A DNA stretch of 64,000 nt. Source: Eledone cirrhosa (Eukaryota). The stretch lies in assembly GCA_964016885.1 (NCBI GenBank), contig OZ024742.1, positions 281,108,001 through 281,172,000 of the forward strand. The letters are read 5' to 3'. Shown here in pieces: positions 12,505 to 57,492 of this stretch; position 1 is the first letter of the stretch, and every line of letters starts with the position of its first letter. The notes under the pieces are model-generated. The model did not search any database, was not told where the DNA came from, and saw nothing but the letters and a program-made list of their open reading frames with translations. The position numbers and the translations under genes are program-made.

Positions 12505-13619
12505 TATATAATCTATATTTCACTCTAAGACTAAGAGAAAAGAGTTTCATTACCAGCTTAGGTAACAATTCCATTACTTACTTTGGCCTTGTTCTAACAC
12601 TGGCTAAAATACTTTGAGTATATCTATCTCCACTGCTGAATAGGTTTCTAGATAGCAAAATTATCTACTACTTATAGAAAATTTTCTGAGCATTTGGGAG
12701 AGTACATTGACTAAGAAATCTTCCTGTTAACTACACCAGTGTACCTCTCATATATCCCGTCTACCTGCGTTGTCAGCCTACCTGCGACGCCGCTACCTCT
12801 CATGTGCAGCTATTGTCCATACTGGATACACCGTAAGAAGTTTCTATCTACACCCGTTAAGCATATTGAGAAAGACCATTTGTATATACGTAATTGCGTG
12901 TGTACGTATGTGCACGTATGTCTTACGTGCGTGCCTATGTCTTAACAACAATATCTGGTCGATGAGCCTATATCTACCTGTCAGTGTGTATTGGCATATT
13001 CTAGATTATTTATACTTTCTCATTTCTGCTGAAGACCCGCACCACTTTTTTTCTATTGGTATTTCAGAATAGTAGCATAACTTTCAGTGTACGTAAATCC
13101 CAACACTCATGTTTGTGGAGATATACATTATTGGCTAACAATCGATAGCTAATGACATTGTGATTAAGCGTTTCGTCACGATTTTCTCGTTTCGGATTAA
13201 GCTATGTGTCCTGCGCATCGTAGCCAGTGTTATGAATTTTCCCTATATACGTCCTCCCTATTCAATCTATTCGTGTATCGACCATATTGAGCTTTTCTTG
13301 CAATTGTTATAGCATGGCATCCCGAAAAATTCTTTTTAGTAAACATTTTAGCGTTTTCTTTATTTTCCCAGTAGTTTATCCATATTATATGCCTTTTTCG
13401 TAAATATCTGTCATTTCGCCTCCTGCTTTGTATGAGGCTTGCCCATTACTTTATTGTTATTATTTTAGCAGTATTTATTCTGTCTCTGCGTTTTGACTTC
13501 GAATCATATTTATCCGCGGTCGATAAAAAACATTTCTAGTCACATATAGGGTCCAATATAATCGGCATTCCCCTCCCCCATCAAAATTACTGACATTATA
13601 ATTTTATTATTATTATCAT

Positions 13620-16600
13620 TTTTTTCATTTATCTTGCTTTATGTTCATACGAGTTATCATCAAGTCACAACCAGTGACCTCAAGAGAAAACAAGGTCCAC
13701 CATGTTCAAGAAAAAACACATACAAACATGTATCTTTAAGTGTTTACACTTGTAATGTAATTATATTGACAGCCACTTCCTTAGTATATGGGCATTTCCC
13801 GTTAATACTATCTTTTGTATTTCTTTTATACGCGGGTTTTCTGGGATTTGAGATAAGTAATCATTATACCCTTTAGGTATCATTCCTAGAACGACTACAA
13901 CCACTGGCATTGATTTAGTTCTCAACTTTTTTTCCAATCTCTATTTCCAGGTCTTTATTCTTGCTCAATTTTTCAAACGTTTTTATAGAAACATTCTTGT
14001 CTATAGGTACGGTCATCTCAATTAGCAGGCATACCCTTTTTTTAAAGTCCTCAGTATTATATCAGGTCTCTTTGCATCTATTATTCGGTTTGTTTGGACG
14101 CTAAAGTTCCACAAAATTGAGATGTGACATTTTTTCAAGTGCGGGAGGTTGTTTATGCTCCCACCAATTCTTTTGATGAGGCAGGTTAAAATGCTTACAC
14201 ATTATCCAATGTATTGTGCCGCTCTGTCGTGCCTGTTTAGGTATTCGGTTGGAGCTCTAGGACTGCACATTGAGATTATATGATCAATGTTCTCTGGTTA
14301 TATTTTTAAATACACGGCATGATGGGTTGCATCAATTTTTTACGATGTTGGCTTGATAATTTTTAGTTGGCAGAGACTGATATCGTGCTGATAAAATCAG
14401 TCCTTCGGTATCCGTTTTCAGTCCCGTGGATGCCATCCTCTGATGGACTAAATTTTTGTCTACATCAATATTATTAGCTCTTTCTGGGTTATTTCCCTAC
14501 AGAGGCTTTTCTTGCCATTTTATCGCCAGTTTCTTTAGTACATCTTTCTTTGCAGTTACTTTTACCTGCTTTGCTTTTTCTGTGTTTGTAACGAAGTATG
14601 ATATTTTGTTGCTTTCATGTGCCAAAACGAGTTTTATCATGTAGATAATCCAATTGTTGCACTCTAACTGGATTAATCCACGTCCTCCTTCTTTCCTAGG
14701 GAGATATACTCTATATGTATCTGCCTTAGGGCGATGTATTCTATGCATGATTAAGAATTTAAGATTTTTCTAACTTTCGTATCGAGTTTACAGATCTCTG
14801 TGCTTGACCAGTTGATGACATTGAAACTGTAAATTTCTACTGGTATGGCAACTGTGTTTATAGCATCGATCCTATTCTTTGCAATCAATTCCTTTCTTAA
14901 AATTGCTCTTACTCTGCGGTAACATTCCTTCCTTATCCTTTCCCTCATTAACGAGTGCTTGATTCCGTCTCCTTCACAAACACCTAGATATTTATAAGTT
15001 TCTTTTGATCAATTCTCTTATCACATTCCCTCGATCAAAATTAACGTCTGAACTTCTCAGCAGCTTTTCTGTGATGAACGTGGCGCATTTATTTAGTCCA
15101 GACTTAATTTTAATATCATAACTGAACTGCTTCACAGTGGATAATAGCCCTTGTAATTGCACATAATGTTTTTGCAAATAGCTTCCTGTCATCCATGTAG
15201 AACAAGTGATTAAGGATTTTGTCATAGAATTTATATCCATGTTTTGTTTCATTGAGCAATTTACTTAATGGTATGAGTAGGATGCAGAATAAAAACGGTG
15301 ATAAAGAGTCACCCTGAAAAATTCCACAATTCACATCAACTTCTTCAGTGACTTTTTTTCACAGTTCAAAGTTAGTGTTGTTTTCCATGCTTCCATACTG
15401 AATGACAGGAATCTCCTGACAACAGAATATATTTTGAAAATCTCTAAACACTTTTAAAATCCAACTGTGTGGCAAACTATCAAATGTTTTTTGTAATCTA
15501 TTCAACAATTTATAGATTTTTGTGTCTATTATGACATTCTTCCAGAATCATTTTGTCAATCAAAAGCAGATCCTTACAGCCATATGAGCCTCGTTTACAT
15601 CTTTTCTGCTCATTGGGGAATATATCATTCGCTATCAGGTGATCATATGTATATTCAGTTAGGATTGATGTTACGATTTTATACATTGTGTTCAAGTAAG
15701 TTATCGGTCTGTAATTTGTTTGATTATTTGTCCCTTTATTCATCGGAAGTAAGAATCTAATGCCATTAATGTCATGATGGTATCTTTTAAGGCTCCTTAA
15801 CCATTTTATTGTAAAGTTGGGTTAATAGCCAAGAGACTCTGTGAAGGCATTTATCAAAAGATTTCCATTTGCTGGATTTTCCAAGAGCTAAACGCAGATG
15901 TTCAACTGTTATATTTTCCCATGTTTGTTCCTCAAAGAGAACATTATCTTGACTTTAATCTCTTTATCCAAGGATCATGTATATTATGAACTTTTTCTTC
16001 GGCCCAGATCTTTTTGAAGCATTCTTGCACTTCTTCCTTGGGTGGCATTGATATATCAGTTATTGTTGACTCGCCAATTTTTCTATAAAATATTTGTTGG
16101 TTATTTTTTAACATGTTATTATCCTTATAGAATCTGGAGCGTTTTTCTAAGAGCCTTATACGAACGCTTTGGCCGGCACTTTTGGCTTGTTTGTTTCGAT
16201 CATCCTGTGTATGTCGCTTTTTGATTTTATATTGTATTTTCTTTTCAATTTTATGAGTTTAGATTGTTTAACATGTTCACCTACTTTATAGTTTGCTAAA
16301 ATTTCTGTCAGATCGAAGAAGATTTATTTGGTGATTGATGTTCTCTTGCCAAGTAGGATTTTTGTGGGCATTCCTTTGTTTCTTTTCAATTTTCACGCTA
16401 CATAAGTGAATAGAGACTTAAGCCGATGCATATTAAAGATGATTTAGTACAGTAATATTTAGTTTATTTGTGGTGATAATGTCTTTGAGAGCTATCCGAG
16501 TCTTGCGTATTATCCTCTGATTTTGTTTGGAATTCTGGATTTTATGGAGAGTGTCTCGTTCCTCCGTGTCAGATTCTTTCATTTTCAGCCATTCAATCAT

Positions 16601-16842
16601 AATTTCATTCTTCAAGTGTGCGAGTTCATTTGCATTTATTTCTTTATCATTGATAATCGCTTCATTGTCTTCATTTTGAGTTCCATCTTGAACATGCACA
16701 CCTTCCACTTTTTCGATCCTTTCATTAATTTATTCTGCTCTCAGTAATTCCGTCCCCTCCCTGAGATTTAAAGTGTTACAATTTCCTTCGTTTTCCCTGG
16801 CACATGTTTCCTTTTCCCTTCGATGAGTTTGTGCTAATTGCT
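13620..16842 (-). mobile_element. R4/Dong-like non-LTR retrotransposon, family A copy A1 (old, degenerate, 5'-truncated)
   Basis: Fragmented ORFs with [21 protein letters not shown] and YLPRKEGGRGL; 3' UTR matches other A copies and ends at a short ATT tract. Confidence 0.9.
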
Positions 16843-17467
16843 GACTTGTTGTTTATGTCGAACATCTGCTGCGGCGTGTAGGACAGAACCGGCTATCAGC
16901 TGAGTCCATTATGAAGATTGTTCCACCGCCCTCCTTTAAGCAGGAGGGACAGGCAGTTTTTATCTGCCTGGTGGCCATGGTAAAAGAGGTCGTATGGTGG
17001 ACGAGTCTCAAACGGTTGAAGACGGGCACTTTCCTCTTCGGTGACGCCCTCATTAACGTTTTCACCTGAAAATAAAAATCAGGGTGGAGAGTGAAGTGCT
17101 GCTTTCCAGCCAGTTTGTTGAAAGTTGAGAGAGTGAGGCAAGAATGGCCCGTGTGGATAGGCATAATCTGAGAGTGTGCCTGTAGTATCGTAGGAGGAAA
17201 AGTGGAAGAGGGGATTTGCCCTAGCGGTCAGGTTGACCGGGGCATTTTGTGAGCTTTCTCCACGAGAGACTGTCGGACGTCTTCCCCTATTGGGGAATTA
17301 TTCCTTTGTTTTCATTTTACTATTACATCCTTTGTTTTTGCTTTTTATATATATATAAACTTTGTTTTTTCTTACACACAGAAATGTCTCTTTCTACCGT
17401 CCTGTACCGTCATGGGCTGTGCTTAATGTTACATTTTATGTCGATCCTTGTGTTTAATAAAGAAAGC
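16838..17467 (+). mobile_element. Tx1-like LINE 3' fragment C0 (diverged subfamily)
   Basis: Homologous to the ORF2 C-terminus and 3' UTR of C1-C3 (gctgacttg..tttatgtcgaaca; ttaataaagaaagc followed by (ATT)n). Confidence 0.9.
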
Positions 17468-17489
17468 ATTATTATTATTATTATTGTTG

Positions 17490-17690
17490 TTCTTTGATGT
17501 TATTTAACTGGAAAGTTAAATTGAAAGGAATATCAAACTGCTACCTGCAGCCTCAGATATTCAGGACGTATCGGAGGATTTTTGCTGTTCCCAGCAAGCA
17601 TGCCTTTTGAAGTGCTCCAAAAAAGCGAGACTGGACTAATCTTCTTTAACCATCCTTGGAAGCTCTTTTTGATAGTACCTAGTGCGCCTA
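17490..17690 (-). mobile_element. Family B 3'-end fragment B0 (~200 bp)
   Basis: ctacctgcagcctcagatattcaggacgtatcggagg... matches 27910-28060; ATT tracts on both sides. Confidence 0.85.
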
Positions 17691-17847
17691 TTATTATTAT
17701 TATAGTTGCATTTATCTTGCTTTATGTTCATACGAGTTATCACCAAGTCACAACCAGTGACCTCAAGAGACAACAAGGTCCGCCATGTTCAAGAAAGAAC
17801 ATACATATACACACTTGCATCTTTTAGTGTTTAGACTTGTGATGTAC

Positions 17848-20800
17848 TTATATTGACAGAATCTTCCTTAGTATATGGGCAGTTCCCATTAGTACTATCT
17901 TTTGTATTTCTCCTATACGCGGGTTTCCTGGGATTTGCGATAAGTAATCATTAGACCCCTTAGGTATCATTCCTAGAGCACCTACAACCACTGGTATTGT
18001 TTTAGTTCTCAATTTCCACATTTTTTCAATTTCTATCTCCAGGTCCTTATACTTGCTCAATTTTTCAAATGTTTTTATAGATACATTCTTGTCTACTGGA
18101 ACGGACATATCAATTAGCAGGCATACCCTCTTTTTAAAGTCTTTCAGTATTATATCACGTTTATTTGCATCTATTTTTCGGTCTGTTTGGATGCTAAAGT
18201 TCCACAAGATTGAGATGTGATCTTTTTCAAGTATGGGAGGTGGTTGATGCTCCCACCAATTCTTTTGATGAGATAGGTCAAAATACTTACACATTATCCA
18301 ATGTATGTATTGTGCAGCTCTGTCATGCCTGTTTATGTATTCGGTTGGAGCTATAGGACTGCACATTGAAATTATATGATCAATCGTCTCTGGTTGTTTT
18401 TTACATACATGGCATAAAGGGTTGCATCCACTTTTTATTATGTTGGCTTGGTAATTTTTTGTTGGCAGACACTGATCTTGTGCTGATATAATCAGACCTT
18501 CCGTCTCCTATTTCAGTCCAGAGGATGCCAACTACTGATGGGTTAAAGTTTTGTCAACATCAGGATTGTTAGCTCTTTCTGGGTATTTTCCATACAGAGG
18601 CTTTTCTTGCCATTTCTTACTTTGCAGTTACTTTTACCTGCTTTGCTTTTTCTGTTTTTCATTTCAGCAGTAAATGGAACTTCTGAGATTTGTAGTCCAT
18701 TACTGTATCTTTGTGCATCTTTTGTAATTGAGTATGATCTTTTGATGCTTTCGTGTTTCAAAACGAGTTTGATCATCCAATCATGTGATTCCCTTAGATA
18801 TGTAGATAATCCAATTGTTGCAGTTTTCAACGCAATCTCTAACTGGATTAACCCACGTCCTCCTTCTTTCCTAGGGAGATATATTCTATCTGTATCTGCC
18901 TTAGGGTGATGCATTCTGTGCATGGTTAAGAATTTTCTAAATTTTGTATCGAGACTACGGTTCTCTGTGCTTGACCAGTTGATGACATTGTAACTGTAGG
19001 TTACTACTGGTATGGCAAGCGTGTTTATGGCATCGATCCTATTCCTTGCTTTAAATTCTGTTCTTAAGATTGCTCTTACTCTGCGGTAACATTCCTTCCT
19101 TATCCTTTCCCTCATTGTCGAGTGCTTGATTCCGTCTCCTTCACAGACACCTATATATTTGTATGTTTCCTCTTGATAAAGTTCTCTTATCACATTTCCC
19201 TGATCAAGATTAATGTCTGAACTTTTCAGCAGCTTTCCACTGGTCAACTTATGCGCATTTATCTAGTCCAAACGCCATTTTAATGTCATCACTGAACTGC
19301 TTCACAGTGGATAATAGCCCATGTTTTGCAAATATTTTCAGGTCATCCATGTAGAACAAGTGATTAATGGTTTTGTCATAGACTTTATATCCATGTTTTA
19401 TTTCATTGAGCATTTTACTTAATGGTATAAGTGCGATGCAGAATAAAAACGGTGATAAAGAGTCACCCTGAAAAAGTCCACAATTAATATTAACTTCTCC
19501 AGCTTCCAGTGATTTTTTTTTCACTATTCAAAAGGAGTGTCGTTTTTCATGTCTTCATACTGAATGACAGGAACCTCCTGACAACGGAGATATTTTGAAA
19601 ATCTCTAAACGTTTTGCAATCCAACTGTGTGGCAAACTATCGAATGCTTTTTTATAATCTTCCCAAGCAATTGAAAGATTGTTGTGTCTATTATGACAAT
19701 CTTCCAGTATCATTTTGTTAACCAAAAGCTGATCTTTACAGCCGTATGAGCCTCGTTTACACCCTTTCTGGGAAATAGATCATTTGTTATCAGGTGGTCA
19801 TATGTATATTCATTTAGGACTGATGTTAACATTTTATACATTGTGGTCAAGCAAGTTATCGGTCTGTAATTTCTGGGATTGTTTGTCTCATCATTCTTCG
19901 GAAGTAGGAATGTAATGCCGTTAACTAGCCACGATGGTATCTTTTCTGGCTCCTTAACTATTTCATTGTAAAGTTGGGCTAACAGATCATGAGACTCTGT
20001 GGAAAACATTTATCCAAAAATTTGGTATTTGGTCTTTTCCCAGGGATTTCCATTTGCTGGTTTTTCTAAGAGCCAAACGCAACTCTTCAACTGTTATATT
20101 TTCCCATATTTGTTCCTCAAGGTGAGCTGTATCTTTCATTTGTCTGTCTATCCATGGGGTATGTATATTATGAACTTTTTCTTCGGCCCAGATCTTTTCC
20201 CAGAATTCTTGCACTTCCTCCTTGGGTGGTATTGATTTAGCAGTTATTGTTGACTTACCAATTTTTATGTAGAAGTTTCTTTGGTTGTTTTTGAACATAT
20301 TATTGTCCTTATAGAATCTAGATCGTTTTTCAAAGCGCCTTATACGAGCAGCTTTGGCCGACACTTTTTGCTTGATTACTTCTATCAGCATGTCTATGTC
20401 ACATGTTGATTTTATACTGTACTTTTTTTTCAATTTTCTAAGTTTCGTTTGTTTAACATGTTCACCTACTTTGTAGTTTGTTAAAATGTCTCTGTCAGAT
20501 CGGAGAAGGTTTATTTGGCGATTGATGTTCTCTTGCCAAGTAGATTTTTGTCGGAATTCCTTTGTTTTTTTCACTTTCACTCCACATAAGTGAGTGGGGA
20601 CTTTAGCCGATGCATAATAGAGGTGATTTAGATCAGTAATATTTATTTTGTTTGTGATGATAATGTTTTTGAGAATTATGTTAGTTTTGTGTATTATCTT
20701 TTGGTTCTGTTTGGAGTTCTGGATCTTAGGGAGAGTGTCTCGTTTACCCATGTCAGATTCTTTCATTTTCATTCATGCAATCAAAATTTCATCCTTCAAG

Positions 20801-21436
20801 TTGGCAAGTTTATTCTCATTCATTTCTTTATCATTTCTGATCTCATTATTTTCATTTTGAGTTTCATCTTTAGCATGCACTCCCTCCACTTTTTCGATCC
20901 TTTCTTTAATTTGTTCTGCTGTCAGTGATTCCGCCCCAACCCTGGGATTCGAAGTGTTACAATTTACCTCGTTTTCACTGACACATGTTTCATTTTCCCT
21001 TCGCTGACTTTGTGCTAATAGCTTGATCTGATCAATTTCTATATCAGTTAGTAACTTTTTTTTACAATATTTCTTCGTATATTGGCTAGTTTGTTACTGT
21101 CAATATAGCCTCTGTTTTGGGGATGTTTCTTTTTCCAGTTGATATATGTCTGTTCTGTATTTGATCTACTTGCTGGGTAGTACATGGCAGTGTAGAAAGC
21201 CTCAAGTACTTCTTTATTGTCTTCCCTTGATCATTTTCCTCTCTTTTTCTTGGTGGGGAGCATGGAGGGCCAACAGTAGGAGTATACCAGTTATGGGAGG
21301 TCTCCAGCTCCGAAGTGATGGGAAGGTTTGAACCATTAGCTGATTTTTCGACCCCAGTCTGGCTCCTCTCTGAGGGACGTGGCCCTTTTTGACCCGGGTG
21401 ACGGCCGATCCGGTATGAGATTTTATCATTAGACAT
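17848..21436 (-). pseudogene. Frameshifted single ORF: RT, CCHC knuckle, restriction-like endonuclease
   Basis: MSNDKISYRIG start; NYRPITCL; QGDSLSP; YMDD; RHD...DIIL...LIDMSVP...KLSKY...VVGALG, all in broken frames. Confidence 0.9.
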
Positions 21437-22137
21437 TTACTTTATTTTGTCGCGTTTTATCCTTATCCGCCAAGGGGTAATCATTTCGTGTTACCACTTC
21501 TAGGACGAGTGTAAACCAAGACTAGAGGGGTCGTCCTCCTCTAGAGACACGACTATTCCTCGCTGGCCGCCATCCCGGTATTTCTTGGTCACGTGGTTTT
21601 GTTTTTTTGTTGTTTTTAAATTGTTATTATCATGAGTGGTTCCTTAATGTGAGCATTGCGTGGCTTAAGAATGAAATTATTATTAATAATATAATATACT
21701 TTTTGTTGAAGTTGCCTGTTGTTGTTGTTGGCTCTGTCGGTGGTGGTGCTGGGGCATTTTCTATTGTTGGTGGGGAAGGGGGGAGCCAGCAGTGCCATAG
21801 CCGTTGACGTTTGACCGTCTACTGATACCGCCACTTTCCCCTTTCTTAAGTTAACAGAAGGTAGTGGGGGAATAGTGGTGGTAGCAATGAAGTAGTGGTG
21901 GCGGCGGTGATGGGATAGTGGTAGCAATGATGGAGTGGTGGCGGCGTCGGTGACTATAGTGATGGCGTTATCGTTACTTAGTTCTGTTGAATAGACTGTA
22001 GTAGGATCCGTTTGTTTGATCTGTATATCTATGCGGTTTGTCGCGTATGTTTAATATATATGTTGACATATTTCCTTAATATTTGAATTAAACATTTTGA
22101 GAAAACTTGAGATACAATAATAGTAATTATTATTATT

Positions 22138-22317
22138 GGCATTGGCAGTATCGGTAGAGGCTCGGATGCCATGCTTCCCAGCATAGTTACATCCCTTTAC
22201 GGTCTGATTTCAAAACCCGCCAAGGTGAACTTTGCCTTTCATCGTTACGGGGTAGATAAAATAAAGTACCAGTAATGCACTGGGTATTTTGCTGGCCTTG
22301 GGCCAAAAGGTAGAAAC
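22138..22317 (+). mobile_element. SINE inserted in the A2 5' UTR
   Basis: Absent from the homologous A5 position (~56200); flanked by duplicated aattattattat. Confidence 0.9.
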
Positions 22318-22707
22318 AATTATTATTATGCTGGCATTGGTGGTGGTGGTGAAAATGCCGTTATCTGGCTGTTGTATTTAGTGTACACAGACGCGTGATG
22401 GGATAGGTGGTGTATCTAGGTTGTTGTGGTCGTGAAATTGCTGTTATTTGGCTGTTCTATATAGTGTAGACAGAGGGGGTTTTCTTCCACTTTCTTTTTT
22501 GAATATAAAATTTATAATACAAAATTGAATATTTGAGCGATATAACAGAATATTATTGGTCCTCATTTCCTGAAAGTTAAGCCCGGTCCTTAATGTCACA
22601 TTTGTACTACAAATTGTTATATCACAATGGTTTTAAATATGTTAAAAATCAAAAAACTTACTGAAGCTTTTCCATAACACTCCATCCACCGCGAGCATCT
22701 CTTCCAG

Positions 22708-22741
22708 TCTTCTTCTTCTCTTCTTCTTCTTCTTCTTCTTC

Positions 22742-22791
<50 letters not shown>

Positions 22792-22857
22792 GTTGTTATT
22801 CCTTGAATCTCAGTCATTGATGTTGGTTAACTGGAAAAAATTATTATTATTATTATA

Positions 22858-22912
<55 letters not shown>
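22708..22912. repeat. (TTC)n-(ATT)n tract containing a ~40 bp 3' tip of family B (22800-22838)
   Basis: ccttgaatctcagtcattgatgttggttaactggaaa is identical to the B1 3' end at 27849. Confidence 0.85.
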
Positions 22913-22913
<1 letters not shown>

Positions 22914-23622
22914 AGTTGCATTTATCTTGCTTCATGTTCATACGAGTTATCACCAAGTCACAACCAGTGACCTCAAGAGACAACAAGGTCCGCCATGTTC
23001 AAGAAAGAACATACATACTCACACATGCATCTTTAGTGTTTAGACTTGTGATGTACTTATATTGACAGAATCTTCCTTAGTATATGGGCAGTTCCCATTA
23101 GTACTATCTTTTGTATTTCTCCTATACGCGGGTTTCCTGGGATTTGCTATAAGTAATCATTAGACCCCTTAGGTATCATTCCCAGAGCGCCTACAACCAC
23201 TGGTATTGTTTTAGTTCTCAATTTCCACATTTTTCCAATTTCTATCTCCAGGTCCTTATACTTGCTCAATTTTTCAAATGTTTTTATAGATACATTCTTG
23301 TCTATTGGAACAGACATAGCAATTAGCTGGCATACCATCTTTTTGAAGTCCTTCAATATTATATCAGGTCTATTTGCATCTATTTTTCGGTCTGTTTGGA
23401 TGCTAAAGTCCACAAGATTGAGATGTGATCTTTTTCAAGTATGGGAGGTGGTTGATGCTCCCACCAATTCTTTTGATGGGGCAGGTCAAAATGCTTACAC
23501 ATTATCCAATGTATGTATTGTGCATCTCTGTCATGCCTGTTTATGTATTCGGTTGGAGCTATAGGACTGCACATTGAAATTATATGGTCAATGGTCTCTG
23601 GTTGTTTTTTGCATACACTGCA
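22913..23622 (-). mobile_element. Family A copy A3, 3' fragment (endonuclease domain and 3' UTR)
   Basis: VCKKQPETIDHIISMC...RHD, RPDIILKD, VVGALG; 3' UTR as in A2 and A4. Confidence 0.92.
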
Positions 23623-27815: not shown

Positions 27816-27848
27816 ATTATGATTATTATTATTATTATTGTTGTTATT

Positions 27849-32038: not shown

Positions 32039-32044
<6 letters not shown>
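27849..32044 (-). mobile_element. R4/Dong-like element, family B copy B1, near full length
   Basis: Bounded by ATT tracts on both sides; colinear with B2. Confidence 0.92.
27923..31346 (-). pseudogene. Family B single ORF (RT, CCHC, RLE), few frameshifts
   Basis: 675 aa intact piece with KSPGPDG, NYRPITCL, IDYRKAFD, QGDSLSP and FMDD; CRICGEREETVAHIVSEC; IVDVACP...EKINRY...IGALG. Confidence 0.92.
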
Positions 32045-32095
<51 letters not shown>

Positions 32096-32096
<1 letters not shown>

Positions 32097-39863: not shown

Positions 39864-40359
39864 ATTAAAGGTGGAAAACTGGTAGAGGGCACATGCCTTG
39901 GTGGTCAGGGTCATTGTGGCTTTTTACTGGGCTTTCTCCACAAATGTCCCTCCGAAGTCTCCCCCCTATTGGGGAATTTTTCATTGTTATTTTGTGTTAC
40001 ATCCTCTGTTTTGTTTTTTACACGCAGAAATGCCCATTTGTACCGTCCTGCATTGTCCCGCACTGTCCTTAATGTCTACTTTATGTAAACCCTTGTGGTT
40101 AATAAAGAAATCATTATTATTATAATTATTATTATTATTATTATTATTATTGGCGACCTACGTAGTAAATCGTATCATCGTGAGCTCCGCAAAGGTTTGT
40201 TATTTCCGTTTGTTAAAAATTGTCATTTATGGAAAATTTTATTGTTAACTGTTTATAAGCGCACATACATTGTTTTCCGAAAAGGACACCCAAAAAGATT
40301 GGGGCCTTGTGCCCAAAATTTAAACTTTTATTATTATCAAAAAAATTTCTCTGAAAAAA

Positions 40360-45300: not shown

Positions 45301-45964
45301 TTCCAGAAATCCCTGGCCTGGCAGTGCTACCGAGGAGCTTTGCCAGTTCGGGATAAACTCTACAGGCATGGAGGTGCCGTCAGCCGGGCATGTCCGAGAT
45401 GCGCGCAAGGCGACGAAACCGTCCTGCACGCACTCGTCCAGTGTCCGAGCATTGCTGACTTGTGGGTTTATGTCGAACACCTGCTGTCACGTGTAGGACG
45501 GATCCAGCTATCAGCTGAGTCCATCGTGAGGATTGCCCCGCCCCCTTCCTTTAGCCTGGAAGGGCAGGCAGTTTTTATCTGTCTGGTGGCCATGGCGAAA
45601 GAGATAGTATGGTGGACACGTTTGAAAGGGCTGAAGACGAGCACTTACCTCTTCGGTGATGCCCTGATTAACTTTTTCAAATTTCATTTGAAAAGGAAAA
45701 TCAGGGTAGAGAGGGAAGTGCTCTCTTCCCAGCATTTTGTTGAAAGATGGGTGAGAGAAGCAAGTATGGCCCGAATGAATGGGCCTTCTCTGAGTATGTG
45801 TCTGTAAATTAAAGGTAGAAAACTGGGGGAGGGCACTTGCCCTGGTGGTCAGGGCCACTGTGGTCTTTTAATGGGCTTTCTCTACAAATGTCCCTTGGAA
45901 GTCTCCCCCCTATTGGGGAATTTTTCTTTGTTATTTTATTTCAACCTCTGTTTTTTACACGCAG
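42349..45964 (+). other. Putative spliceosomal intron spanning all of ORF2 (equivalents 24115-27730 and 36429-40027)
   Basis: Donor AG|GTAAGT at the ORF1 stop; acceptor ttttttacacgcag| in the 3' UTR; the join keeps the ORF1 frame open to a stop just before AATAAA. Confidence 0.5.
42387..45807 (+). pseudogene. ORF2 APE-RT of C3, nearly intact (one frameshift near 42430, one TAG at 44746)
   Basis: 777 aa and 347 aa pieces in the same frame; full APE, RT and CCHC motifs. Confidence 0.93.
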
Positions 45965-46048
45965 AAATGCCCATTTGTACCGTCCTGTATTGTCCTGTAC
46001 TGTCCTTAATGTCTACTTTATGTGAACCCTTGTGGTTAATAAAGAAAA

Positions 46049-46049
<1 letters not shown>

Positions 46050-46118
<69 letters not shown>
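46050..46118. repeat. (ATT)n tract between C3 and B2 (tail-to-tail)
   Basis: Direct inspection; equivalent tracts at 17468-17490, 27816-27848, 32042-32095, 34112-34130, 40113-40151, 50437-50476, 51717-51752, 56609-56633 and 56821-56860. Confidence 0.95.
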
Positions 46119-46119
<1 letters not shown>

Positions 46120-49100
46120 TTTGAGTCTCAGTCATTGATGTTAGTTAACTGGAAAGTTTGTTGAAATGAATATCAAGCCACTACCTGCAGCCTCAGATAT
46201 TCAGGACGTATTGGAGGGTTCTTGCTGTTCCCAGCAAGCATGCCTTTGAAGCGTTCCAAAAAGCGTGGCGGGGACAATTTTCTTTAACCATCCCTGGAAA
46301 CTTTTTGAGATAGTCCCCAGTGCGCCTATGACAATCGGGACCACTTTGACTTCATGGCAGTTCTAAATCCTTTTTACCTCCCACTTTAAGTCCTGGTATC
46401 GGTTAATTTTCTCCCTCTCCTTCTCTTGCACTCTCGTGTCGGATGGGCAGGCCACATCCACAATCTGGCACGATCTTTTTTCTTTGTCCACAACCACCAG
46501 GTGAGGTCTATCGTGTTCCAGTTTCTTGTCCGTCTGTATCCTAAAATCTCACAGCACCTTCACCTGATCGTTTTCTATCACCGCCTCTGGCTTATGCTCA
46601 TACCACTTCTCAGAATGTGGTAAATTGTTTACTTTGCATAGGTGCCAGTGGATCACCCTGCCCATCATATCATGTCTCCAGCCCTTATAGTGAGTCTCGG
46701 CTAGGTGTTTACACTCGGATTCAATGTGAGCCACAGTCTCCTCTCTCTCTCTCCACAGATCCTGCACAGTGGGCTAGCCTCCTCCTTGTAAATATGGTGT
46801 TTCAACCACTTCGTTTTGAGGGCCTGCTCCTGCGCAGCCATTAACATTCCTTCTGTAGCCTTTTTAAGGTCTCCTCTTTTCAACCAGTTCCATGTCTGTG
46901 GATCTCTGAATTCAGTATTCTCAAAGAAGGTACTATGAAGGGATTTTTCCTGAAGGCTGCTCTTTCTCCTTGATGTTATTTCCTCCTTGGACATCCCCTT
47001 GTCTATTGTCACCTCCTTCAGTACTGTTCTGAGCATTGGCTCCTTACTATCAGTCTCGTATTTGTGTAGGTTGTTTTTCTACATCTGAACACAGTCCTCT
47101 ATGCTGATAAGACCTCTTCCACCTTCAGATCTCCTTAAGTAGAGTCTATCGACATCACTCCTCTTGTGGAACATGTTGTAGATAGTCGATAGCTTCCTAG
47201 TCTTCCTATCCATTTATTTTTGTTCGGCAACATCCCATCTCAGAATTCCCGCACTGTAACTAATAATAGACACAGCTCGGGAATTTACTGCACTTATGGT
47301 ATTCCTACTGTTCAGATGTGACTTTAATACGCTCCTTACTCTCCGAATCTATTCAGTTCTTATCAATTCCTTTTTTTTTGTTCTTTATGTCATGAGCCTC
47401 CAGAACACCCAAATACTTGTATCCTTCTTCAGTGTCAATTTCCTTTATCATCTCACCTGTTGGTACCTGGATTCCGTTACTTCTGCTCAATTTACCTCTC
47501 TTCATCACAAGGACTCCACATTTACTAATACCAAATTGCATACATATATCAGTGCTGAAAATACGGACAGTGTCAACAAGCACATCCAACTCCTTCTCAC
47601 TCTCCCCGAAGAGCTTAAGATCGCCCATGAAGAGGATGTGATTGATGGTAAGCCCGCCCTTTCCCAACCTGTATCCTGCTCTCACTTTTCGCAGTACACT
47701 GGTCAGGGGCATCAGGGCAAGGACAAACAACAGAGGGGACAGACTATCTCCTTGGAAGATACTTCTCTTGATCTTCACGCTTCCCAAGGATTCTCCAGCT
47801 GATGTTAACTCTGTTTCCCAGGACTTCATACTTTTTCCCAACAACTGTCTGATGTTATCTGCGACCTTGAAGATCTCTAGGCTTTTGGTGATCCAAGAAT
47901 GAGGCACCATGTCAAATACCTTTGTGTAGTCTATCCATCCCATGGCAAGACCAGTGTGTCTCCTCTTGCAATTCCTCATTACCATTTTATCAATAAGTAA
48001 CTGGACCTTTGTACCACCTGACTTCTTTCGGCATCCTTTCTGTTCGTCCGGTAACAAGTTGTTTGTGTGGAGGTGATGGTAGATTTCCTCAGACATAATT
48101 TGTTCTACTTTTGGCACCAGGCCAGCAATTATCCCAGTTTATTACTGGTACTTTATTTTATCGACCCCGTAAGGATGAAAGGCAAAGTTAACCTCGGCGG
48201 GATTTGAACTGAGATCATAAAGGGAGGTAACTCTATGCTTCAAAGCATGGCGCCCGACCCTTTATCGATACTGCCAATCCGTTGTCAACAGTTTCCACAT
48301 TACGGACAGACATGCGATAGGTCTATATTTGGTAACATCATTACTCTTGATTCGGTCGTTCATTATCAGAAATGTGGTACCTTTTGTCAACCACTCTGGT
48401 ACCTCACCTGACATCAAGCCGTCATTGAACATGGTTGTCAGTTTCGTGTGGAAGAGATGTTATATTTTTAATGCAATACCCCTGCACACCATCTGGGCCA
48501 GGTGATTTCCTGTTGGTTAGTTTTTTGCCCTGCCCCTTAAGAGTTTCAACTGTGATACTCAAATCAGTTTGTTGTTGTGCCTGTTCAATAATCTCCTTCT
48601 GTACTGTCTCAATCCACACTGCCTGGTCATTATGTTTAACATCCTGCTCCCATATTCCTCTCCAGAATGTTTTAGTTTGTTTCGCCCCAGGGATCAAGTC
48701 GTTGCCTCTTTCTTTCGCTTCAAGCTGTCCAAACAGCATCTTCTGGTTGTTGTGGAACATGCGGTTCTGTCTATACTGACTGACTCTGTTCTCGTATCGC
48801 CTGATTTTTGTACTCTTTGCTACAATGCGTTGCTTCAGTTCCTCTATGATAATATTTAGTTTTTCCTCCTAGTTTTGTACTTTATTTCCAGTCTATTTTT
48901 AGTGTCAATATTTTTTAGTGTCCCATTCAGTAGGGACTCAAGCTTTCCAATGTCATTTCTCACTTCCCTGATTTGACCACTCAGTCGTTTCTTCGACCAA
49001 GGCTCTGATCTTTCTCGTTTGTTGTTTCCTCTCGCTTTTATACCAAGTAATTTCCTCACCGTATTTGCTGTTGCTTTGAGGATATTGTTGCACTGGTGAA

Positions 49101-50437
49101 GGCTCCTCGCCTCAAGGTATGGGATGACTTTTTTTACCTTAGCTGTTGTTTCTTTTAACTTGTTCCTGTCTAAAAATATTAGGTTCATAGGTTTCCCACT
49201 ATCATTGTTCAATTCATCTACCACTAAGTTTAGGATATCAACCAAATCTTTCCTAGCCCATCAGCATTCATCTCCTCAGTGGCCGTATCTCTGTTCCAGG
49301 TATTATTTATTTCAGCATTCAGTTCATTGTCTGCTTCGGTTGGTTCCACCGTTCTCTCGACCTCTTCACCTTCATTTCCCACTGGCTCGTTTGCCTGGCA
49401 TACTACACTCTCCATGTCCAAGCTAATCTCTCTGCTCAGTTCCTCCAGTTCCAGCTCGCTTATCCACCTATTAGTTCTTATTACCCGAGCCTGCCCGACC
49501 AATTTTTGTTCATCTAATTTAAATAGACCAATCTCGTTCCAGATGTTATGCATCCGTTTCCTATAGCCTTTCTCCTTGGGGTTACTCTTCAGGTAACATT
49601 GCATAACAGTTCTATTCAATTCTTTCGTCCAGTTTGTTCTCATCCCTTTCCTTCTTCTTCTTCCTCCGACACCAGCAGTATTTGGTTGACAGCCAGGTCC
49701 CTGCTGCTGAGCCAAAGAGCACCTGTTGGGTGAAAGTCTGTCACATGACATTTTAGTCTCCACTTCACCGTTATTCGAACTGTTTAGGTTCGACATTTAA
49801 ACAATCTTATCGAGGATTGGCGAATGTATGGTTACATAACCACCGGTGATTTCATCACCTCCGGTGATTTCGTCACTCCCGGTGATTTTTGGCAGTATCA
49901 CGCTGTAGACGAACATAAATAAACAAACAAACAAACAGGCAAACAAAAAACCCAAAATGAATAAGCATAAGTTTCATTGTAATGTAATGTTTGAATGTCT
50001 GACTTAGTTTTTCCCTTCCCTTCTCTGTCCGTCTGTTTGTTTTTCTCTTCATTTTTCTTTTCTTTACGTTTTTCGTTGTTGCTGTGCTGCTTTGATTTTG
50101 ATTTTGGTTTTTTGGTTTATTTATATACTTTAATGCCTTCCTCTTTTAGTGGGGACACTACGATGTAGCAGGGGTAGTGGTAGAGAATAGCGGCGGTAGT
50201 GATAATGAGGCAGTGGTTGTTGTGGTGGTGGCGTTGCTGTGCTAGTAGTACCTAGCAGGAGGTAGCGGGAGAGAATAGCGGTGGTAGCGATGATGAGGCA
50301 GTGGTGGTGGTGATGTGATCGTAGTACTGTAGTGATGGTGTTGAAGTTGGAGTAGAAATAGAGGTTGAGGTAACATGACCAGAGTTTTTAGCGTGGTAGT
50401 GGTGGTGGTGTTGGTGGTGAAATTATCTTTAGCTATT
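46119..50437 (-). mobile_element. Family B copy B2, near full length, degenerate, SINE-interrupted
   Basis: ORF starts MSNLNSSNNG at 49796; colinear with B1; ATT on both sides. Confidence 0.92.
48098..48280 (-). mobile_element. SINE inserted into the RT region of B2
   Basis: Reverse complement of the SINE at 56637; absent from B1 (29821-29840) and B3. Confidence 0.9.
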
Positions 50438-50476
50438 TATTATTATTATCATTATTATTATTATGATTATTATTAC

Positions 50477-51716
50477 TCTTTGAGTCTCAGTCATTGATGT
50501 TAGTTAAATGGAAAGTTTGTGTCAAGTTTGTGTCAATTTTCTATATCATCTCACCTGTTGGTACCTGGATTACGTTGCTTCTGCTCAATTTACCCCTCTT
50601 CATCACAAGGACTCCACACTTACTAATACCAAATTGCATACATATATCATTGCTGAAAATACGGACAGTGTCAACAAGCACATCCAACTCCTTGTCACGA
50701 TTCCCGAAGAGCTTAAGATCGTCCATGAAGAGGAGGTGATTGATGGTAAGACCTCCCTTTCCCAACTTGTATCCTGCTCTCACCTTTCGCAGTTTAATGG
50801 TCAGGGGCATCAGGGCAAGGACAAACAACAGCGGGACAGACTATCTCACTGGAAGATACCTCTCTTGATCTTACCGCCTCCCAAGAATTCTCCAGCTGAT
50901 GTTAATTCTGTTTTCCAGGGCTTCATACTTTTGCCCAACAACTGTCTGATGTTATCTACCACCTTGAAGATCTCTAGGCTTTTGGTGATCCAAGAATGTG
51001 GCACCATGTCAAATGCCTTTTTGTAGTCTATCCATTCCATGGCAAGAGCAGTGTGTCTCTTCTTGCAATGCCTCATTACCATCTTATCAATAAGTAACTG
51101 GTCCTTTGTACCACGTGACTTCTTTCGGCATCTTTTCTGTTCGTCCTGTAACAAATTGTTTGTGTGGAGGTGATGGTAGATCTCCTCAGACATAATGCTT
51201 GCCAACAGTTTCCACATTACGGACAGACATGTGATAGGTCTATAGTTGGTAACATCATTACCCTTGATTTGGTCTTTCATTACCAGAACTGGGGTACCTT
51301 TTGTCAACCACTCTGGTACCTCACCTGACATCAAGCAGTCATTGAACATGGTTGTCAGTTTCGGGTGGAGGGATGTTATATTTTTAATCCAATACCCCTG
51401 CACACCATCTGGGCCTGTTGATTTCCAGTTGGTTAGATTGTTGGCCTGCCCCTTAAGAGTTCAACTGTGATACTCAAATCAGATTGTTGGTGTACTTGTT
51501 CACTAATCTCCTTTTGTACTGTGTCAATCCACACTGCCTCGTCATTATGTTTAACATCCTGCTCCCATATTCCACTCCAGAAAATTTTAGTTTGTTCCGC
51601 CTCAGGGATCAAGTCGTTGCCTCTTTCTTTCCCTTCAAACTGTCCAAACAGCATCTTCTGGTTGTTGTCAAACATGCGGTTCTGTCTATACTGACTGACT
51701 CTGCTCTCGTATCGCC
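50477..51716 (-). mobile_element. Family B copy B3: 5'-truncated, with ~1.3 kb internal deletion removing the endonuclease
   Basis: The ~45 bp 3' tip is joined directly to RT sequence homologous to ~47432. Confidence 0.88.
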
Positions 51717-51752
<36 letters not shown>

Positions 51753-51753
<1 letters not shown>

Positions 51754-54700
51754 AGTTGCATTTATCTTGCTTTATGTTCATACGAGTTATCACCAAGTCA
51801 CAACCATTGACCTCAAGAGACAACAAGATCCGCCATGTTCAAGAAAGAACATACATACTCACACATGCATCATTAGGTGTTTAGACTTGTGATGTACTTA
51901 TATTGACATAATCTTCCTTAGTATATGGGCAGTTCCCATTAGTACTATCTTTTGTATTTCTCCTATACGCGGGTTTCCTGGGATTTGCGATAAGTAATCA
52001 TTAGACCCATTAGGTATCATTCCGAGAGCGATTACAACCACTGGTATTGTTTTAGTTCTCAATTTCCACATTTTTTCAATTTCTATCTCCAGGTCCTTAT
52101 ACTTGCTCAATTTTTAAAATGTTCTTAGATACATTCTTGTCTATTGGAACGGACATATCAATTAGCAGGCATACCCTCCTTTTAAAGTCCTTCAATATTA
52201 TATCAGGATTATTTGCATCTATTTTTCGGTCTGTTTGGTTGCTAAAGTTCCACAAGATTGCGATGTGATCTTTTTCAAGTATGGGAGGTGGCTGATGCTC
52301 CCACCAATTCTTTTGATGGGGCAGTTCAAAATGCTTACACATTATCCAATGTATGTATTGTGCAGCTCTGTCATGCCTGTTTAGGTATTCGGTTGGAACT
52401 ATAGGACTGCACATTGAAATTATATGGTCAATAGTCTCTGGTTCTTTTTTACATACACGGCATAATGGGCTGCATCCATTTTTTATTATGTTGGCTTGGT
52501 AATTTTCTTTTGGCAGACACTGATCTTGTGCTGATATAATCAGTCCTTCAGTCTCCGATTTCAGTCCAGAGGATGCCAACCACTGATGGGTTAAAGTTTT
52601 GTCAACATCAGGATTGTTAACTCGTTCTGGGTATTTTCCATACAGAGGCTTTTCTTGCCATTTCTTAGCCAGTTTCTGTAGCAGTTCTTTCTTTGCAATT
52701 ACTTTTACCTGCTTTGCTTTTTCTGTGTTTTCCATTTCAGCAGTAAATGGGACTTCTGAAATTTGTAGTCCATTACTGTATCTTTGTGCATCTTTTGTAA
52801 TGGAGTATGATCTTTTGATGCTTTCGTGTCTCAAAACGAATTTGATCATCCAATCATGTGATTCCCTTAGATATGTAGATAATCCAATTGTTGCAGTTTT
52901 CAACGCAATCTCTAACTGGATTAACCCACGTCCTCCTTCTTTCCTAGGGAGATATATTCTATCTGTATCTGCCTTAGGGTGATGCATTCTGTGCATGGTT
53001 AATCATTTTCAAATTTTTGTATCGAGCCTACGGATCTCTGTGCTTGACCAGTTGATGACATTGTAACTGTAGGTTACTACTGGTATGGCAAGCGTGTTTA
53101 TGGCATCGATCCTATTCCTTGCATTCAATTCCGTTCTTAAGTTTGCTCTTACTCTGCGGTAACATTCCTTCCTTATCCTTTCCCTCATTGTCGAGTGCTT
53201 GATTCCGTCTCCTTCTCAAACACCTAGATATTGTAAGTTTCCTCTTGATCAAGTTCTCGTATCACATTCCCCCGATCAAGATTAATGTCTGAACTCTTCA
53301 GCAGTTTTCCTCTGGTGAACGTTGCTTTGGCGCATTTATCTAGTCCAAACTCTATTTTAATGTCATCACTGAACTGCTTCACAGTGGATCTTGCAATTGT
53401 TCATAATTTTTTGCAAATAGTTTCATGTCATCCATGTAGAACAAGTGATTAATGGTTTTGTCATAGACTTTATATCCGTGCTTTGTTTCATTGAGCATTT
53501 TACTTAATGGTATAAGTGCGATGCAGAATATAAGCGGTGATAAAGAGTCACCCTGAAAAATTTCACAATTAATATTAACTTCACCAGCTTCCAGTGAATT
53601 TGTTTCACTATTCAAAAGGAATGGCGTTTTCCATGTCTTCATACTGAATGACAAAAACCTCCTGACAACGGGAGATATTTTGAAAATCTCTAAACATTTT
53701 TCAATCCAATTGTGTGGCAAACTATCGAATGCTTTTTTATAATCTATTCAAGCAATAGATAGATTTTTGTGTCTATTATGACAATCTTTCTGCTCAATGG
53801 GAAATAGGTCATTTGTTATCAGGTGGTCATATGTGTATTCAGTTAGGACTGATGTTAAAATGTTATACATTGTGGTCAAGCAAGTTATCGGTATGTAATT
53901 TTGGGGATTGTTTGTCTCATCATTCTTCGGAAGTAGGAATGTAATGCCGTTAACTAGCGATGATGGCATCATTTCTGGCTCCTTAACTATTTCATTGTAA
54001 AGTTGGGCTAACAGCTCATGAGACTCTGTGAAGGCATTTAACCAAAAATGTTGTATCTTGTCTTTTCCTGGGGATTTTGATTTGGTGGTTTTTCTTAGAG
54101 CCAAACGCAACTCTTCAACTGTTATATTTTCCCATATTTGTTCCTCAAGGTGAGCTATATCTTTCATTTGTCTGTCTATCCATGGGGCATGTATATTATG
54201 AATTTTTTCTTCGGCCCAGATCTTTTCCCAGAATCCTTGCACTTCCTCCTTGGGTGGTATTGATTTAGCAGTTATTGTTGACTTACCAATTTTTCTGTAG
54301 AAGTCTCTTTGGTTGTTTTTGAACATATTATAGTCCTTATAGAATCTAGATCGTTTTTCAAAGCGCCTTATTCGAGCAGCTTTGGCCGGCACTTTTTGCT
54401 CTATTATTTCTATCAGCATGTCAACTCACATGTTGATTTTATACTGTCCTTTTTTTACAATTGTCTAAGTTTAGTTTGTTTAACATGTTCACCTACTTTA
54501 TAGTTGTTAAAATGTCTGTCAGATCGGAGAAGGTCTATTTGGCGATTGATGTTCTCTTGCCAAGTAGATTTTGTGTGGGAATTCCTTTGTTTTTTCATCT
54601 TCACCCCACATAAGTGAGTGGTGACTTTAGCCAATGCATAATAGAGATGATTTAAATCAGTAATGTTTAGTTTGTTTGTGATGATAATGTTTTTGATAAT

Positions 54701-56600
54701 TATGTTAGTCTTGTTTATTATCTTTTGGTTCTGTTTGGAGTTCTGGATCTTAGGGAGGGTGTCTCGTTCCCCCATGTCAGATTATTTCATTTTCATCCAT
54801 TCGATCATAATTTCATCCTTCAAGTTTGCAAGTTCATTCTCATTCATTTCTTTATCATTTACGATCTCATTATTTTCATTTGGAGTTTCATCTTGAGCAT
54901 GAACTCCCACCACTTTTTCGATCCTTTCTTTAATTTGTTCTGTTGTCAGTAATTCCGCTTCAACCCTGGGATTCGAAGTGTTACAATTTACCTCGTTTTC
55001 ACTGACACATGTTTCATTTTCCCTTCGCTGACTTTGTGCTAATAGCTTGATCTGATCAATTTCTATATCAGTGTGTAACTTTTTTTTTACAATATTTCTT
55101 CGTTTATTGGCTAGTTTGTTACTGTCAATATAGCCTCTGTTTTCGGGATGTTTCTTTTTCCAGTTGATATATGTCTGTTCTGTATTCGACGTATTTGATG
55201 GGTAGTACATGGCAGTGTAGAAAGGCTCAAGGACTTCTTTATTATCTTTCCTTGACCATTTTTCTCTCTTTTTCTTTGGATTTCTTGGGGGTGAGCATGG
55301 AGGGCCAACAGTAGGAGTATTCCGTTTATGGGAGGTCTCCAGCTCCGAAGTGATGGGAAGGTTTGAACCATTAGCTGATTTTTCGACCCTAGTCTGGTTC
55401 CTCTCTGAGGAACGCGGCCCTTTTTGACCCGGGTGACGGCCGATCCGGTATGAGATTTTATCATTAGACATTTACTTTATTTTGTCGCGTTTTACCCTTA
55501 TCCGCCAAGGGGTAATCAATTCATTTTACCACTTCTAGGTCGAGTGTCAACCAAGACTAGAGGGTCGTCCTCCCCTAGAGGCACGGCTATTCCCCGCCGG
55601 CCGCCATCCCGGTATTTCTTGGTCACTTGGTTTTCTTTTTTGTTGTTTTTTAAATTGTTATTATCATGAGTGGTTCCTTAATGTGAGCATTGCGTGGCTT
55701 AAGAATGAAATTATTAATAATATAATATACATTTTGCTGAAGTTGCCTGTTATTGTTGTTGGCTATGACGGTGGTGGTGCTGGGGCTTTTTCTATTGTTG
55801 GTGGGGAAGGGGGAGCCAGCAGTGCCATAGTCGTTGACGTTGGGCCGGTGGCCGGGTCACTAAGTCAATCTATTTATATATTTTGCTAGCCTATCCCTTG
55901 TCTAGTGATACCGCCACCTTCCCCTTTCTTAAATTAACAGAAGGTAATGGGGGAATAGTGGTGGTAACAATGAAGGAGTGGTGGCGGCGGTGATGGGATA
56001 GTGGTGGCAATGATGGATGGAGTGGTGGCGGCGGTGACTATAGTGATGGCATTGTCGTTACTGAGTGTTGTTGAATAGACCGTAGTTTTGTTAGCTGTGT
56101 ATCTATGCGTTTGTCGTGTATGTTTAATATATGTGTTGACATATATTAAACATTGGAATTAAACATTTTGTTAAAACTTGAGACAATAATAATAGTAATT
56201 ATTATTATTATGCTGAGATTGGTCGTGGTGGTGGTGAATTGCCGTTATCTGGCTGTTGTATTTAGTGTACACAGAGGGGTGATGGGGTAGGTGGTGTATC
56301 TAGTTTCCGGTGTTGGCGAAATTGCTGTTATTTGGCTGTTCTATATAGTGTAGACAGAGGGGGTTTTCTTCCATTTATAACCATTTATTTTTTGAATATA
56401 AAATGTATAATACAAAATTGAATATTTGAGCGATATAACTATATATTATGGATCCGAATTTTTCCGAGACTTGAGTCGGATGGGTTATGTATCATATGTA
56501 CTAAGAATTGTTATTTCACAATTGATTTAAATATGTTAAAAATCAAAAACTTACGGGAGCGACTTCATGACCTTCTAACCACCACGTGCGTCTTCTTCCC
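51753..56600 (-). mobile_element. Family A copy A5, near full length, frameshifted (ORF 55471-51898)
   Basis: Colinear with A2; RT, CCHC and RLE motifs; ATT tracts on both sides. Confidence 0.93.
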
Positions 56601-56636
56601 TTATTCTCTTATTATTATTATTATTATTATTATAAA

Positions 56637-56820
56637 GGGCGGTGAATTGGCAATATCGGTACAGGATTGGGCGCCATACTTTCTAGCATAGTTACGTCCC
56701 TTTACAGTCTGAGTTCAAATCCCGCCGAGGTTAACTTTGCCTTTCATCCTTACGGGGTCGATAAAATAAAGTACCAGCAATGTACTGGGTAATTGCTAGC
56801 CTTGTGCCTAAAGTAGAAAC
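56637..56820 (+). mobile_element. tRNA-derived SINE within (ATT)n
   Basis: gggcggtgaattggcaatatcggta...gagttcaaatcccgcc...aagtagaaac, flanked by ATT repeats. Confidence 0.9.
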
Positions 56821-57379
56821 AATTATTATTATTATTATTATTATGATTATTACTATTATTGTTGTTGTTGTTGTTGTTGTTGTTAAAAGAAATGAACCAT
56901 CAATAGAAACACTTAAAAGGAGATGAAACTGATAAGACACAATATACAGGAATTAAGGAGTAAAAAGACGACAATACTTTGTAAAAATTCATATAAATAT
57001 ATGAAAAAACAACATGACAAAACCAGAAATAAGTTAATGAGATATGAATACAGTAGCCATTAGCTACAGCTTCAATACACGAAGAATTAGTAGTTAAATG
57101 AACTGAATAACGTAGATATGAATCCTAGAAAAATCGTATTGAATTCATTCCGGTCAGACCGTATTAAAAATTATATAGATAAGACAAAGTTACCCTATGC
57201 AAAATGAGAGAGAGAGCAGTATACAAATAGAAAACAATAACAAATGGTATACAAACAGAAGAAAATTAACTAGACTAGATCTAGTTATAGAAATTAACTT
57301 AGAATTAACTGAAGCGAGGTTGATTAGTATAAGACAATTTGAAAAGAGAAAAACAATGAAAGCATTTAGTTGTATCTCT

Positions 57380-57403: not shown

Positions 57404-57492
<89 letters not shown>

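Follow-up and report, generated by a model that had tools for sequence, protein, structure and literature searches.

Retrotransposons of two endonuclease classes stacked with opposite polarity and mostly joined by ATT tracts in Eledone cirrhosa

Dong, of the R4 clade, is found on (TAA)n in insects, molluscs and cnidarians, and the elements from Bombyx, Anopheles, Biomphalaria and Darwinula have one open reading frame (ORF) with a reverse transcriptase (RT) and a C-terminal restriction-like endonuclease (RLE), the (TAA)n target being in their own sense (PMC7998251, PMC3812793). Elements of the Tx1 type have two ORFs, an apurinic endonuclease-like (APE) nuclease, RT and a zinc knuckle, and a microsatellite on both flanks, (TC)n for Kibi, (TTC)n for Koshi and (TTCC)n or (TTTC)n for those of crocodilians, target preference corresponding to over 20% of flanks (PMC4494074). 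Insertion of two elements into a single simple repeat in opposite orientations, determined mainly by the endonuclease, is established for TRAS1 and SART1 of Bombyx mori (PMC7265360), so the principle is not new. In a 64,000-nucleotide stretch of DNA from the octopod Eledone cirrhosa (contig OZ024742.1, positions 281,108,001 to 281,172,000; here the window), 14 retrotransposon copies are stacked over 43 kb (13606-56884), Dong-like on one strand and Tx1-like on the other, and most of their junctions are ATT tracts. This nest works like the TRAS/SART system but is not it: TRAS1 and SART1 are both APE elements of the R1 clade on telomeric (TTAGG)n, whereas here an RLE type and an APE type of the L1 group meet on a plain ATT microsatellite. 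Unlike the Dong cases, there are two Dong-like lineages, families A and B, in one nest. The Tx1-like family, C, is flanked by (ATT)n, equal to (TTA)n and one base from the Koshi target as written, and not by the (TC)n or (TTC)n of Kibi and Koshi.

Self-BLAST and pairwise comparison of the cut elements place all ten RLE-type copies on the minus strand and all four APE-type copies on the plus strand, each as proposed by an earlier sequence-only reading of this DNA. The left half runs ATT3, A1(-), C0(+), ATT6, B0(-), ATT4, A2(-), TCT12+ATT16, B tip(-), ATT, A3(-), C1(+), ATT6, B1(-), and continues ATT17, A4(-), ATT6, C2(+), ATT13, C3(+), ATT23, B2(-), ATT13, B3(-), ATT11, A5(-), ATT7, a short interspersed element (SINE)(+) and ATT/GTT. 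Were orientation random, ten of ten RLE copies would lie one way with p ~0.002 and four of four APE copies the opposite way with p ~0.06; at that value the APE part of the claim needs evidence from junctions.

Sixteen junctions are counted, both borders and the terminal SINE included, and the top strand reads ATT at 14 of them, which bears out what had been said of most junctions. Tract phase in the nest is ATT in 23 cases and AAT in one, against three and two in the left flank, and pure ATT runs make up 495 of the 43,255 nest bases (1.1%). Since a tract beside a Dong tail must read ATT, its polarity there is not independent of that of the element. Independent tracts are those of A4/C2 and A5/SINE, each between two 5′ ends, and the C2/C3 tract, which touches no RLE element; lying between two 5′ ends, the first two (34113-34130 and 56611-56631) cannot be tails. 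For A and B together, (TAA)n in sense flanks ten of ten 3′ ends and eight of ten 5′ ends (at A2 with a TCT run in between), and AAT stands directly 5′, in their own sense, of four copies cut at different points (B0, B tip, A4 and B3). C2 and C3 have ATT at both ends, which makes two of two for the intact C 5′ ends in the nest. All of C0-C3 have AATAAA 6-7 bases before the tract, a signal that could end transcripts there. A palindromic tract variant (ATT-ATA-AT) recurs at 13595 on the left border and at 22852 and 40119 in internal tracts.

The nest probably arose through insertions that were separate events in a single (ATT)n/(AAT)n microsatellite, with the two Dong-like families nicking the ATT-reading strand and the Tx1-like family, together with a SINE that it likely mobilises, nicking the AAT-reading strand. 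Strands, tracts, distinct break points and divergences, domain content and the 3′ end common to SINE and C are direct observations. In target-primed reverse transcription the nicked strand primes the complementary DNA (PMC1919474), so the strand cut fixes the direction of the element. A minus-strand RLE element, with its UAA tail, would be primed by the top strand, which reads ATT, and a plus-strand APE element, with its AUU tail, by the bottom strand, which reads AAT; in each case primer and tail would pair. Each insertion would split and renew the tract, leaving tract on both sides, and in consequence targets would multiply while all keeping one polarity. Opposite nicking of one microsatellite and the regeneration of targets had both been put forward before. 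Independent insertions into one microsatellite, the TAA sense of the RLE families and the ATT sense of the APE family (C2, C3 and one truncated copy) are supported, but the APE side is weaker than claimed, with three informative 5′ junctions; nicking and renewal alike we infer from target-primed reverse transcription.

The SINE, of 180 bases, has five copies in the window, three of them in the nest; neither these three nor a fifth APE element just outside it (C4) figured in the sequence-only reading. Two copies, with the same plus-strand orientation as C, lie in ATT tracts, and the site of the one in A2 is empty in A5. Aligned in register with the tail, the last 22 bases of the terminal SINE and the C0-C3 ends agree at 15/22, as against 5-6/22 for A4, B1 and B2, and 15/22 is reached at 11 of 128,000 positions: the five SINEs, the four C ends, one site in the 5′ untranslated region (UTR) of C3 and one chance match. 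A stem of four pairs with a CTTGT-type loop is paired in 90.4% of cells over 13 hand-picked segments, with two-sided changes at four of four pairs (13 cells), against 0/500 shuffles and 25-58% for slid controls. As the segments are related, were picked for the motif and mostly fold no better than shuffles, a 3′-terminal hairpin common to C and the SINE is graded as likely. Because of the common 3′ end (15/22 and the covarying hairpin), family C likely mobilises the SINE in trans. L1-group SINE/LINE (long interspersed element) pairs of maize and sorghum and of Chlamydomonas are similar in their shared 3′ end and hairpin with kept loop and covarying stem (PMC3472496), and SINEU similarly shares a target preference with Tx1-Mar (PMC4494074); in the present pair the shared part is ~22 bases plus the ATT tail. 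The hairpin is also seen 150-190 bases into the 5′ UTR of C2 (34303-34319), of C3 (40302-40314, with a short TTA run after it) and of relatives outside the window (L087:7026-7040), and a similar one in C4 (58630-58651).

An apparent 6.3 kb repeat (23618-29829 and 41830-48099, 94.6% match) and the order C-ATT-B, met three times, raise the question whether copying of a few C-B-A units, by segmental or tandem duplication, was the main source of the nest, in which case the polarity counts would not be independent. A3 and A4, just 15/706 apart (2.1%), and a one-base tract variant common to 22855 and 40122 would fit. However, within the block C1 and C3 differ at 114/3742 positions (3.0%) and B1 and B2 at 138/1976 (7.0%) and 163/1783 (9.1%), with Fisher p=2.6e-11 for the first two, and with divergence so unequal the C-ATT-B blocks are not one duplication. 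Nor do the 3′ ends of B1 and B2, the break points of any copy, or the 5′ halves of C2 and C3 agree. Duplication as the main cause is largely refuted by the unequal C and B divergence, was rejected and is very improbable. Copies are at least 2% apart and their break points differ; A2, A4 and A5 are 4.5-5.5% apart and A1 and A3 12.4%. At 0.0036 per million years (PMC13282606), and assuming an octopod host, the time since shared templates would be ~3-19 million years, a rough upper bound on insertion age.

Four of 24 listed public runs were compared with 32080-41800. Contigs of two (X1 and X6) cover 30/30 bins, and the raw-read runs X22 and X23 cover only 6 and 4 of 30, on ACC-rich simple sequence, and are uninformative. 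Joints were taken from copies with a flank matching 32080-41800; 15 are listed, beside 771 joints and 3681 loose ends outside the list. Among those listed, X1 contigs have family A cut at 32416, 32494 and 32605, each joined to the tract at 34110-34112, and the tract joined to family C cut at 39857. Tract joints in nest polarity, with at least 20 letters on each side, thus number 4/15 of the joints listed, and those of reverse polarity 0/15. The X1 joints attest such copies without giving their frequency, and X1 may be the source sample. They also bear on the idea that the element order is an assembly artefact, repeat reads having been misjoined at ATT tracts. Simple repeats are classic misjoin points, and among the contigs listed none spans 32080-41800, but long copies share at most 98% identity with one another, random joins would not preserve strand by family, microhomology or a short inverted repeat is present at both tract-free joints, and the same junction types recur in contigs of a public run; an artefact is scarcely credible.

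Several observations weigh against separate insertions by both classes into one microsatellite, or against strict use of it. Informative C 5′ junctions are only three (C2, C3 and one contig), and the tract upstream of C3 is also the tail of C2. C4 has no ATT on its 5′ side. Two junctions, 16842 and 23618, are tract-free. Three of the five SINEs are not in tracts; their sites start, in sense, with ATAT, ATTAT or GTTAT, and two of them have 11- and 13-base duplications. One SINE copy matches at 10/22 ungapped, owing to an extra base, and the hairpin stem, just four pairs long and selected by eye, shows no better folding than shuffles in 8/11 segments. No read spanning the locus was seen. Lastly, 43 of 48 loci outside the window (L084-L125 and L131, at 40-50% identity), the nearest relatives on long contigs and all from one contaminated metagenome-assembled genome, are mostly head-to-tail arrays with no ATT tract at their junctions; like the (TATC)4 near the 5′ end of C4, they speak against an ATT habit of long standing in C. 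The polarity had been called strict, which the tract-free junctions, C4 and the three SINEs show to be too strong a word. If C moves the SINE, the SINEs outside tracts imply that the C nuclease also accepts short ATTAT-like sites, which weakens strictness further. At both tract-free joints an A 5′ end meets a C 5′ end and both partners are shortened; one joint has 2-3 bases of microhomology, and in the other an 8-base inverted repeat is completed by two extra bases. These are likely later microhomology or repair deletions, or deletions made during insertion.

Much of this would also fit a reading in which only the Dong-like families are microsatellite-specific and the Tx1-like one loosely prefers a short ATTAT-like site with a set polarity, produces its ATT tail itself through slippage and accumulates in the nest because tracts are dense there and selection is weak. 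The SINEs with a C-type 3′ end at ATAT, GTTAT and ATTAT sites, C4, the relatives at 43% identity that use no ATT, and the two of four C 5′ ends that are uninformative all point that way. Against it, (ATT)6 or longer adjoins the two C 5′ ends that are intact as well as one truncated copy from the genome, and no C copy lies inside another element that continues past it, though tracts are such a small part of the nest; specificity on the Dong side only is accordingly considered unlikely, and use of the tract by both classes is preferred.

Families A and B have RT, then a CCHC knuckle and a PD-(D/E)xK-type nuclease motif (PD..D), and no APE domain. Their RVT_1 matches have E-values of 9e-22 and 3e-20; the knuckle was found in B1, A2 and A5 and RPD..D in B1 and A3, both by motif pattern. 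Residues 2-567 of A4 align with R2 proteins (E 2e-17). NCBIfam gave sub-threshold group II intron RT matches only. In an RT tree A and B cluster with 11 relatives at 100/100, none of them named Dong or R4, and stand apart as two lineages, so the name Dong-like expresses likeness in domain order and target, with no named reference protein among the matches. The Dong N-terminus is described as a Myb/SANT-like domain without zinc fingers (PMC7998251). In A and B, Pfam had no match on the two N-terminal frames in which such a domain was sought; the N-terminus of B resembles, by eye, that of the relative L003. Dong of B. mori has a 5′ ribozyme like that of hepatitis delta virus (PMC3774820), whereas A and B gave no Rfam ribozyme match and our own descriptor 0 hits in 7 regions, a weak test with no positive control. 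That Dong elements target TAA repeats, as had been stated, is published (PMC7998251) and is seen again in Dong-like relatives at 40-41% identity (n=3): the truncated L001 and the full-length L003 have (TAA)21 and (TAA)31, 5′ and in sense, and L002 has no TAA tract in its 2115 bases. All three are eukaryotic retrotransposon contigs inside three bacterial metagenome-assembled genomes (MAGs), presumably host contamination.

The first 400 bases of family A (22330-22707 and 56210-56608) end in an internal (AAT)3-4 tract, are 81% conserved as against 90% elsewhere and hold two copies of the motif with which B1 begins; they may be a former neighbour captured by read-through. B3 has an internal deletion of 1.27 kb (50505-50540) with an 11-base direct repeat at the joint, and it starts within a few bases of the end point of the B tip (~45 bases from the 3′ end).

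Family C has ORF1 and ORF2, with matches to Exo_endo_phos (E 2e-12), RVT_1 (E 1e-26) and zf-RVT (E 2e-08). The closest solved protein is L1 ORF2p (E 4e-37), among named relatives of the APE protein one from Argonauta hians comes closest (57%), and a protein atlas comparison gave generic APE/RT clusters only. In the RT tree C falls in a 100/100 clade with seven mostly unnamed relatives, apart from two plant proteins. The label Tx1-like, taken over from the sequence-only reading, denotes likeness in structure and target preference, no match being named Tx1. C2 and C3 have a common ORF2 (5% apart) and different 5′ UTRs and ORF1s (34131-36380 and 40152-42300); that they are one family along the whole length is rejected, as their 5′ 2.2 kb do not align. 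X1 contigs link C2-type and C3-type 5′ parts (34649 and 34728 to 40736, 36003 to 41582), which points to exchange of ORF1 parts. C4, on the plus strand and ~70% identical to C1-C3, runs with its 3′ end beyond the window; the (TATC)4 near its 5′ end makes it a possible sister family that targets a different T-rich microsatellite. The array loci L084-L125 and L131 are contigs CAXXMW0100000xx of 13-94 kb, filed as an Arenicella MAG, with APE elements at a period of ~6.4-6.9 kb and 43% identity to C3. Of 20 checked, 19 have ORF2 open over 1138-1146 codons and one is cut by the locus end. The junctions are without microsatellite; the arrays are likely animal host DNA in a bacterial bin, and they look young and self-targeting.

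The observation is real and mostly explained by known biology, and the known mechanism of target-primed insertion is unchanged by it. Likely new are an ATT target for the Tx1 type, the sharing of this target, in mirror polarity, with Dong, and a likely SINE partner. In a literature search there was no sign of a Tx1 element targeting ATT, of a nest of Dong with Tx1 or of a Tx1 partner for an octopus SINE, though older papers, Repbase Reports and supplements could hold such a record, and the available parts of two octopus repeat papers (PMC13282606, PMC8967140) have nothing on target sites. In Octopus vulgaris Dong-R4 (5 families) and L1-Tx1 are among the recently active elements, SINEs are 11.6% of the genome and element hotspots, of which 288 are counted, are unexplained (PMC13282606). 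A shared microsatellite target, if true, would explain some hotspots in a simple way, and a Tx1-like partner, if true, would identify an engine behind an octopod SINE and add one more to the few L1-group SINE/LINE pairs with a shared 3′ end. APE and RLE enzymes on opposite strands of one three-base repeat are also a clean pair for nuclease assays. By layout, antisense read-through between the classes is possible and might, as had been suggested, be a source of dsRNA or piRNA, though the AATAAA of C0-C3 could stop such transcripts at the tract. A wider proposal, speculative and rather doubtful, is that an octopod Tx1-like lineage has become a specialist on (ATT)n, the opposite strand to the old target of Dong, recognises its RNA via a 3′ CUUGU-loop hairpin and thereby drives a major octopod SINE family, with RLE, APE and SINE elements building self-enlarging, strictly polarised nests on ATT microsatellites genome-wide and read-through giving antisense RNA against the other class.

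Table 1. Features of the nest and its neighbour, in window coordinates
Feature	Position	Strand	Description
Left border tract	13606-13614	+	(ATT)3, imperfect
A1	13615-16842	-	Family A, oldest copy (12.4% from A3), without 5′ part
C0	16843-17467	+	3′ fragment of older APE subfamily (74% to C1-C3), joined to A1 without ATT
B0	17486-17689	-	204-base 5′-truncated family B copy, ATT6 and ATT4 on its sides
A2	17702-22707	-	Family A, full-length, broken ORF; ATT tract inside 5′ UTR
SINE in A2	22138-22318	+	Within ATT tract of A2 5′ UTR; site empty in A5
Compound tract	22708-22791	+	(TCT)12 + (ATT)16
B tip	22792-22839	-	48-base abortive family B copy, 46/46 identical to B1 3′ end
A3	22912-23617	-	706-base family A 3′ part, joined to C1 without ATT; 8-base inverted repeat at joint
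C1	23620-27821	+	APE element without 5′ part, broken ORF2
B1	27840-32043	-	Family B, full-length; RT, CCHC knuckle, PD..D nuclease motif
A4	32095-34112	-	5′-truncated family A; 623-codon open frame (RT to RLE); flanks ATT17 and ATT6
A4/C2 tract	34113-34130	+	(ATT)6 separating 5′ ends of A4 and C2; target remnant, not tail
C2	34131-40112	+	APE element, full-length, own 5′ UTR and ORF1, ATT on both ends
C3	40152-46049	+	APE element, full-length (APE, RT, zf-RVT), ATT on both ends
Hairpin of C3	46025-46037	+	Likely 3′-terminal hairpin, CTTGT loop; also at 27791, 40088 and SINE 3′ ends
B2	46119-50436	-	Family B, full-length, subfamily differs from B1
SINE in B2	48100-48280	-	At ATTAT site, no tract
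B3	50475-51718	-	5′-truncated family B, internal deletion near 50517
A5	51752-56608	-	Family A, full-length, broken ORF
Terminal SINE	56632-56821	+	ATT7 on either side
Right border tract	56822-56884	+	Compound (ATT)n(GTT)n
C4	58490-64000+	+	Related APE family outside nest (70%); (TATC)4 instead of ATT, at 58476-58491; approximate 5′ end

The longest stop-free frame in nine long copies checked is 104-777 codons, against 1100-1250 in intact relatives, so none of the nine is intact. The window contains no N. The ORF list has no ORF of at least 150 codons left of the nest, ARAGORN found 0 tRNA genes, and Rfam gave 0 matches at gathering score and six weak ones, five on dinucleotide repeats and one on the terminal tract, taken as chance. 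Both flanks (1-13600 and 57390-57860) are rich in A and T; long runs of (AT)n, (CA)n and (TG)n occur in them, as do small repeats, inverted or direct (e.g. 3335-4094).

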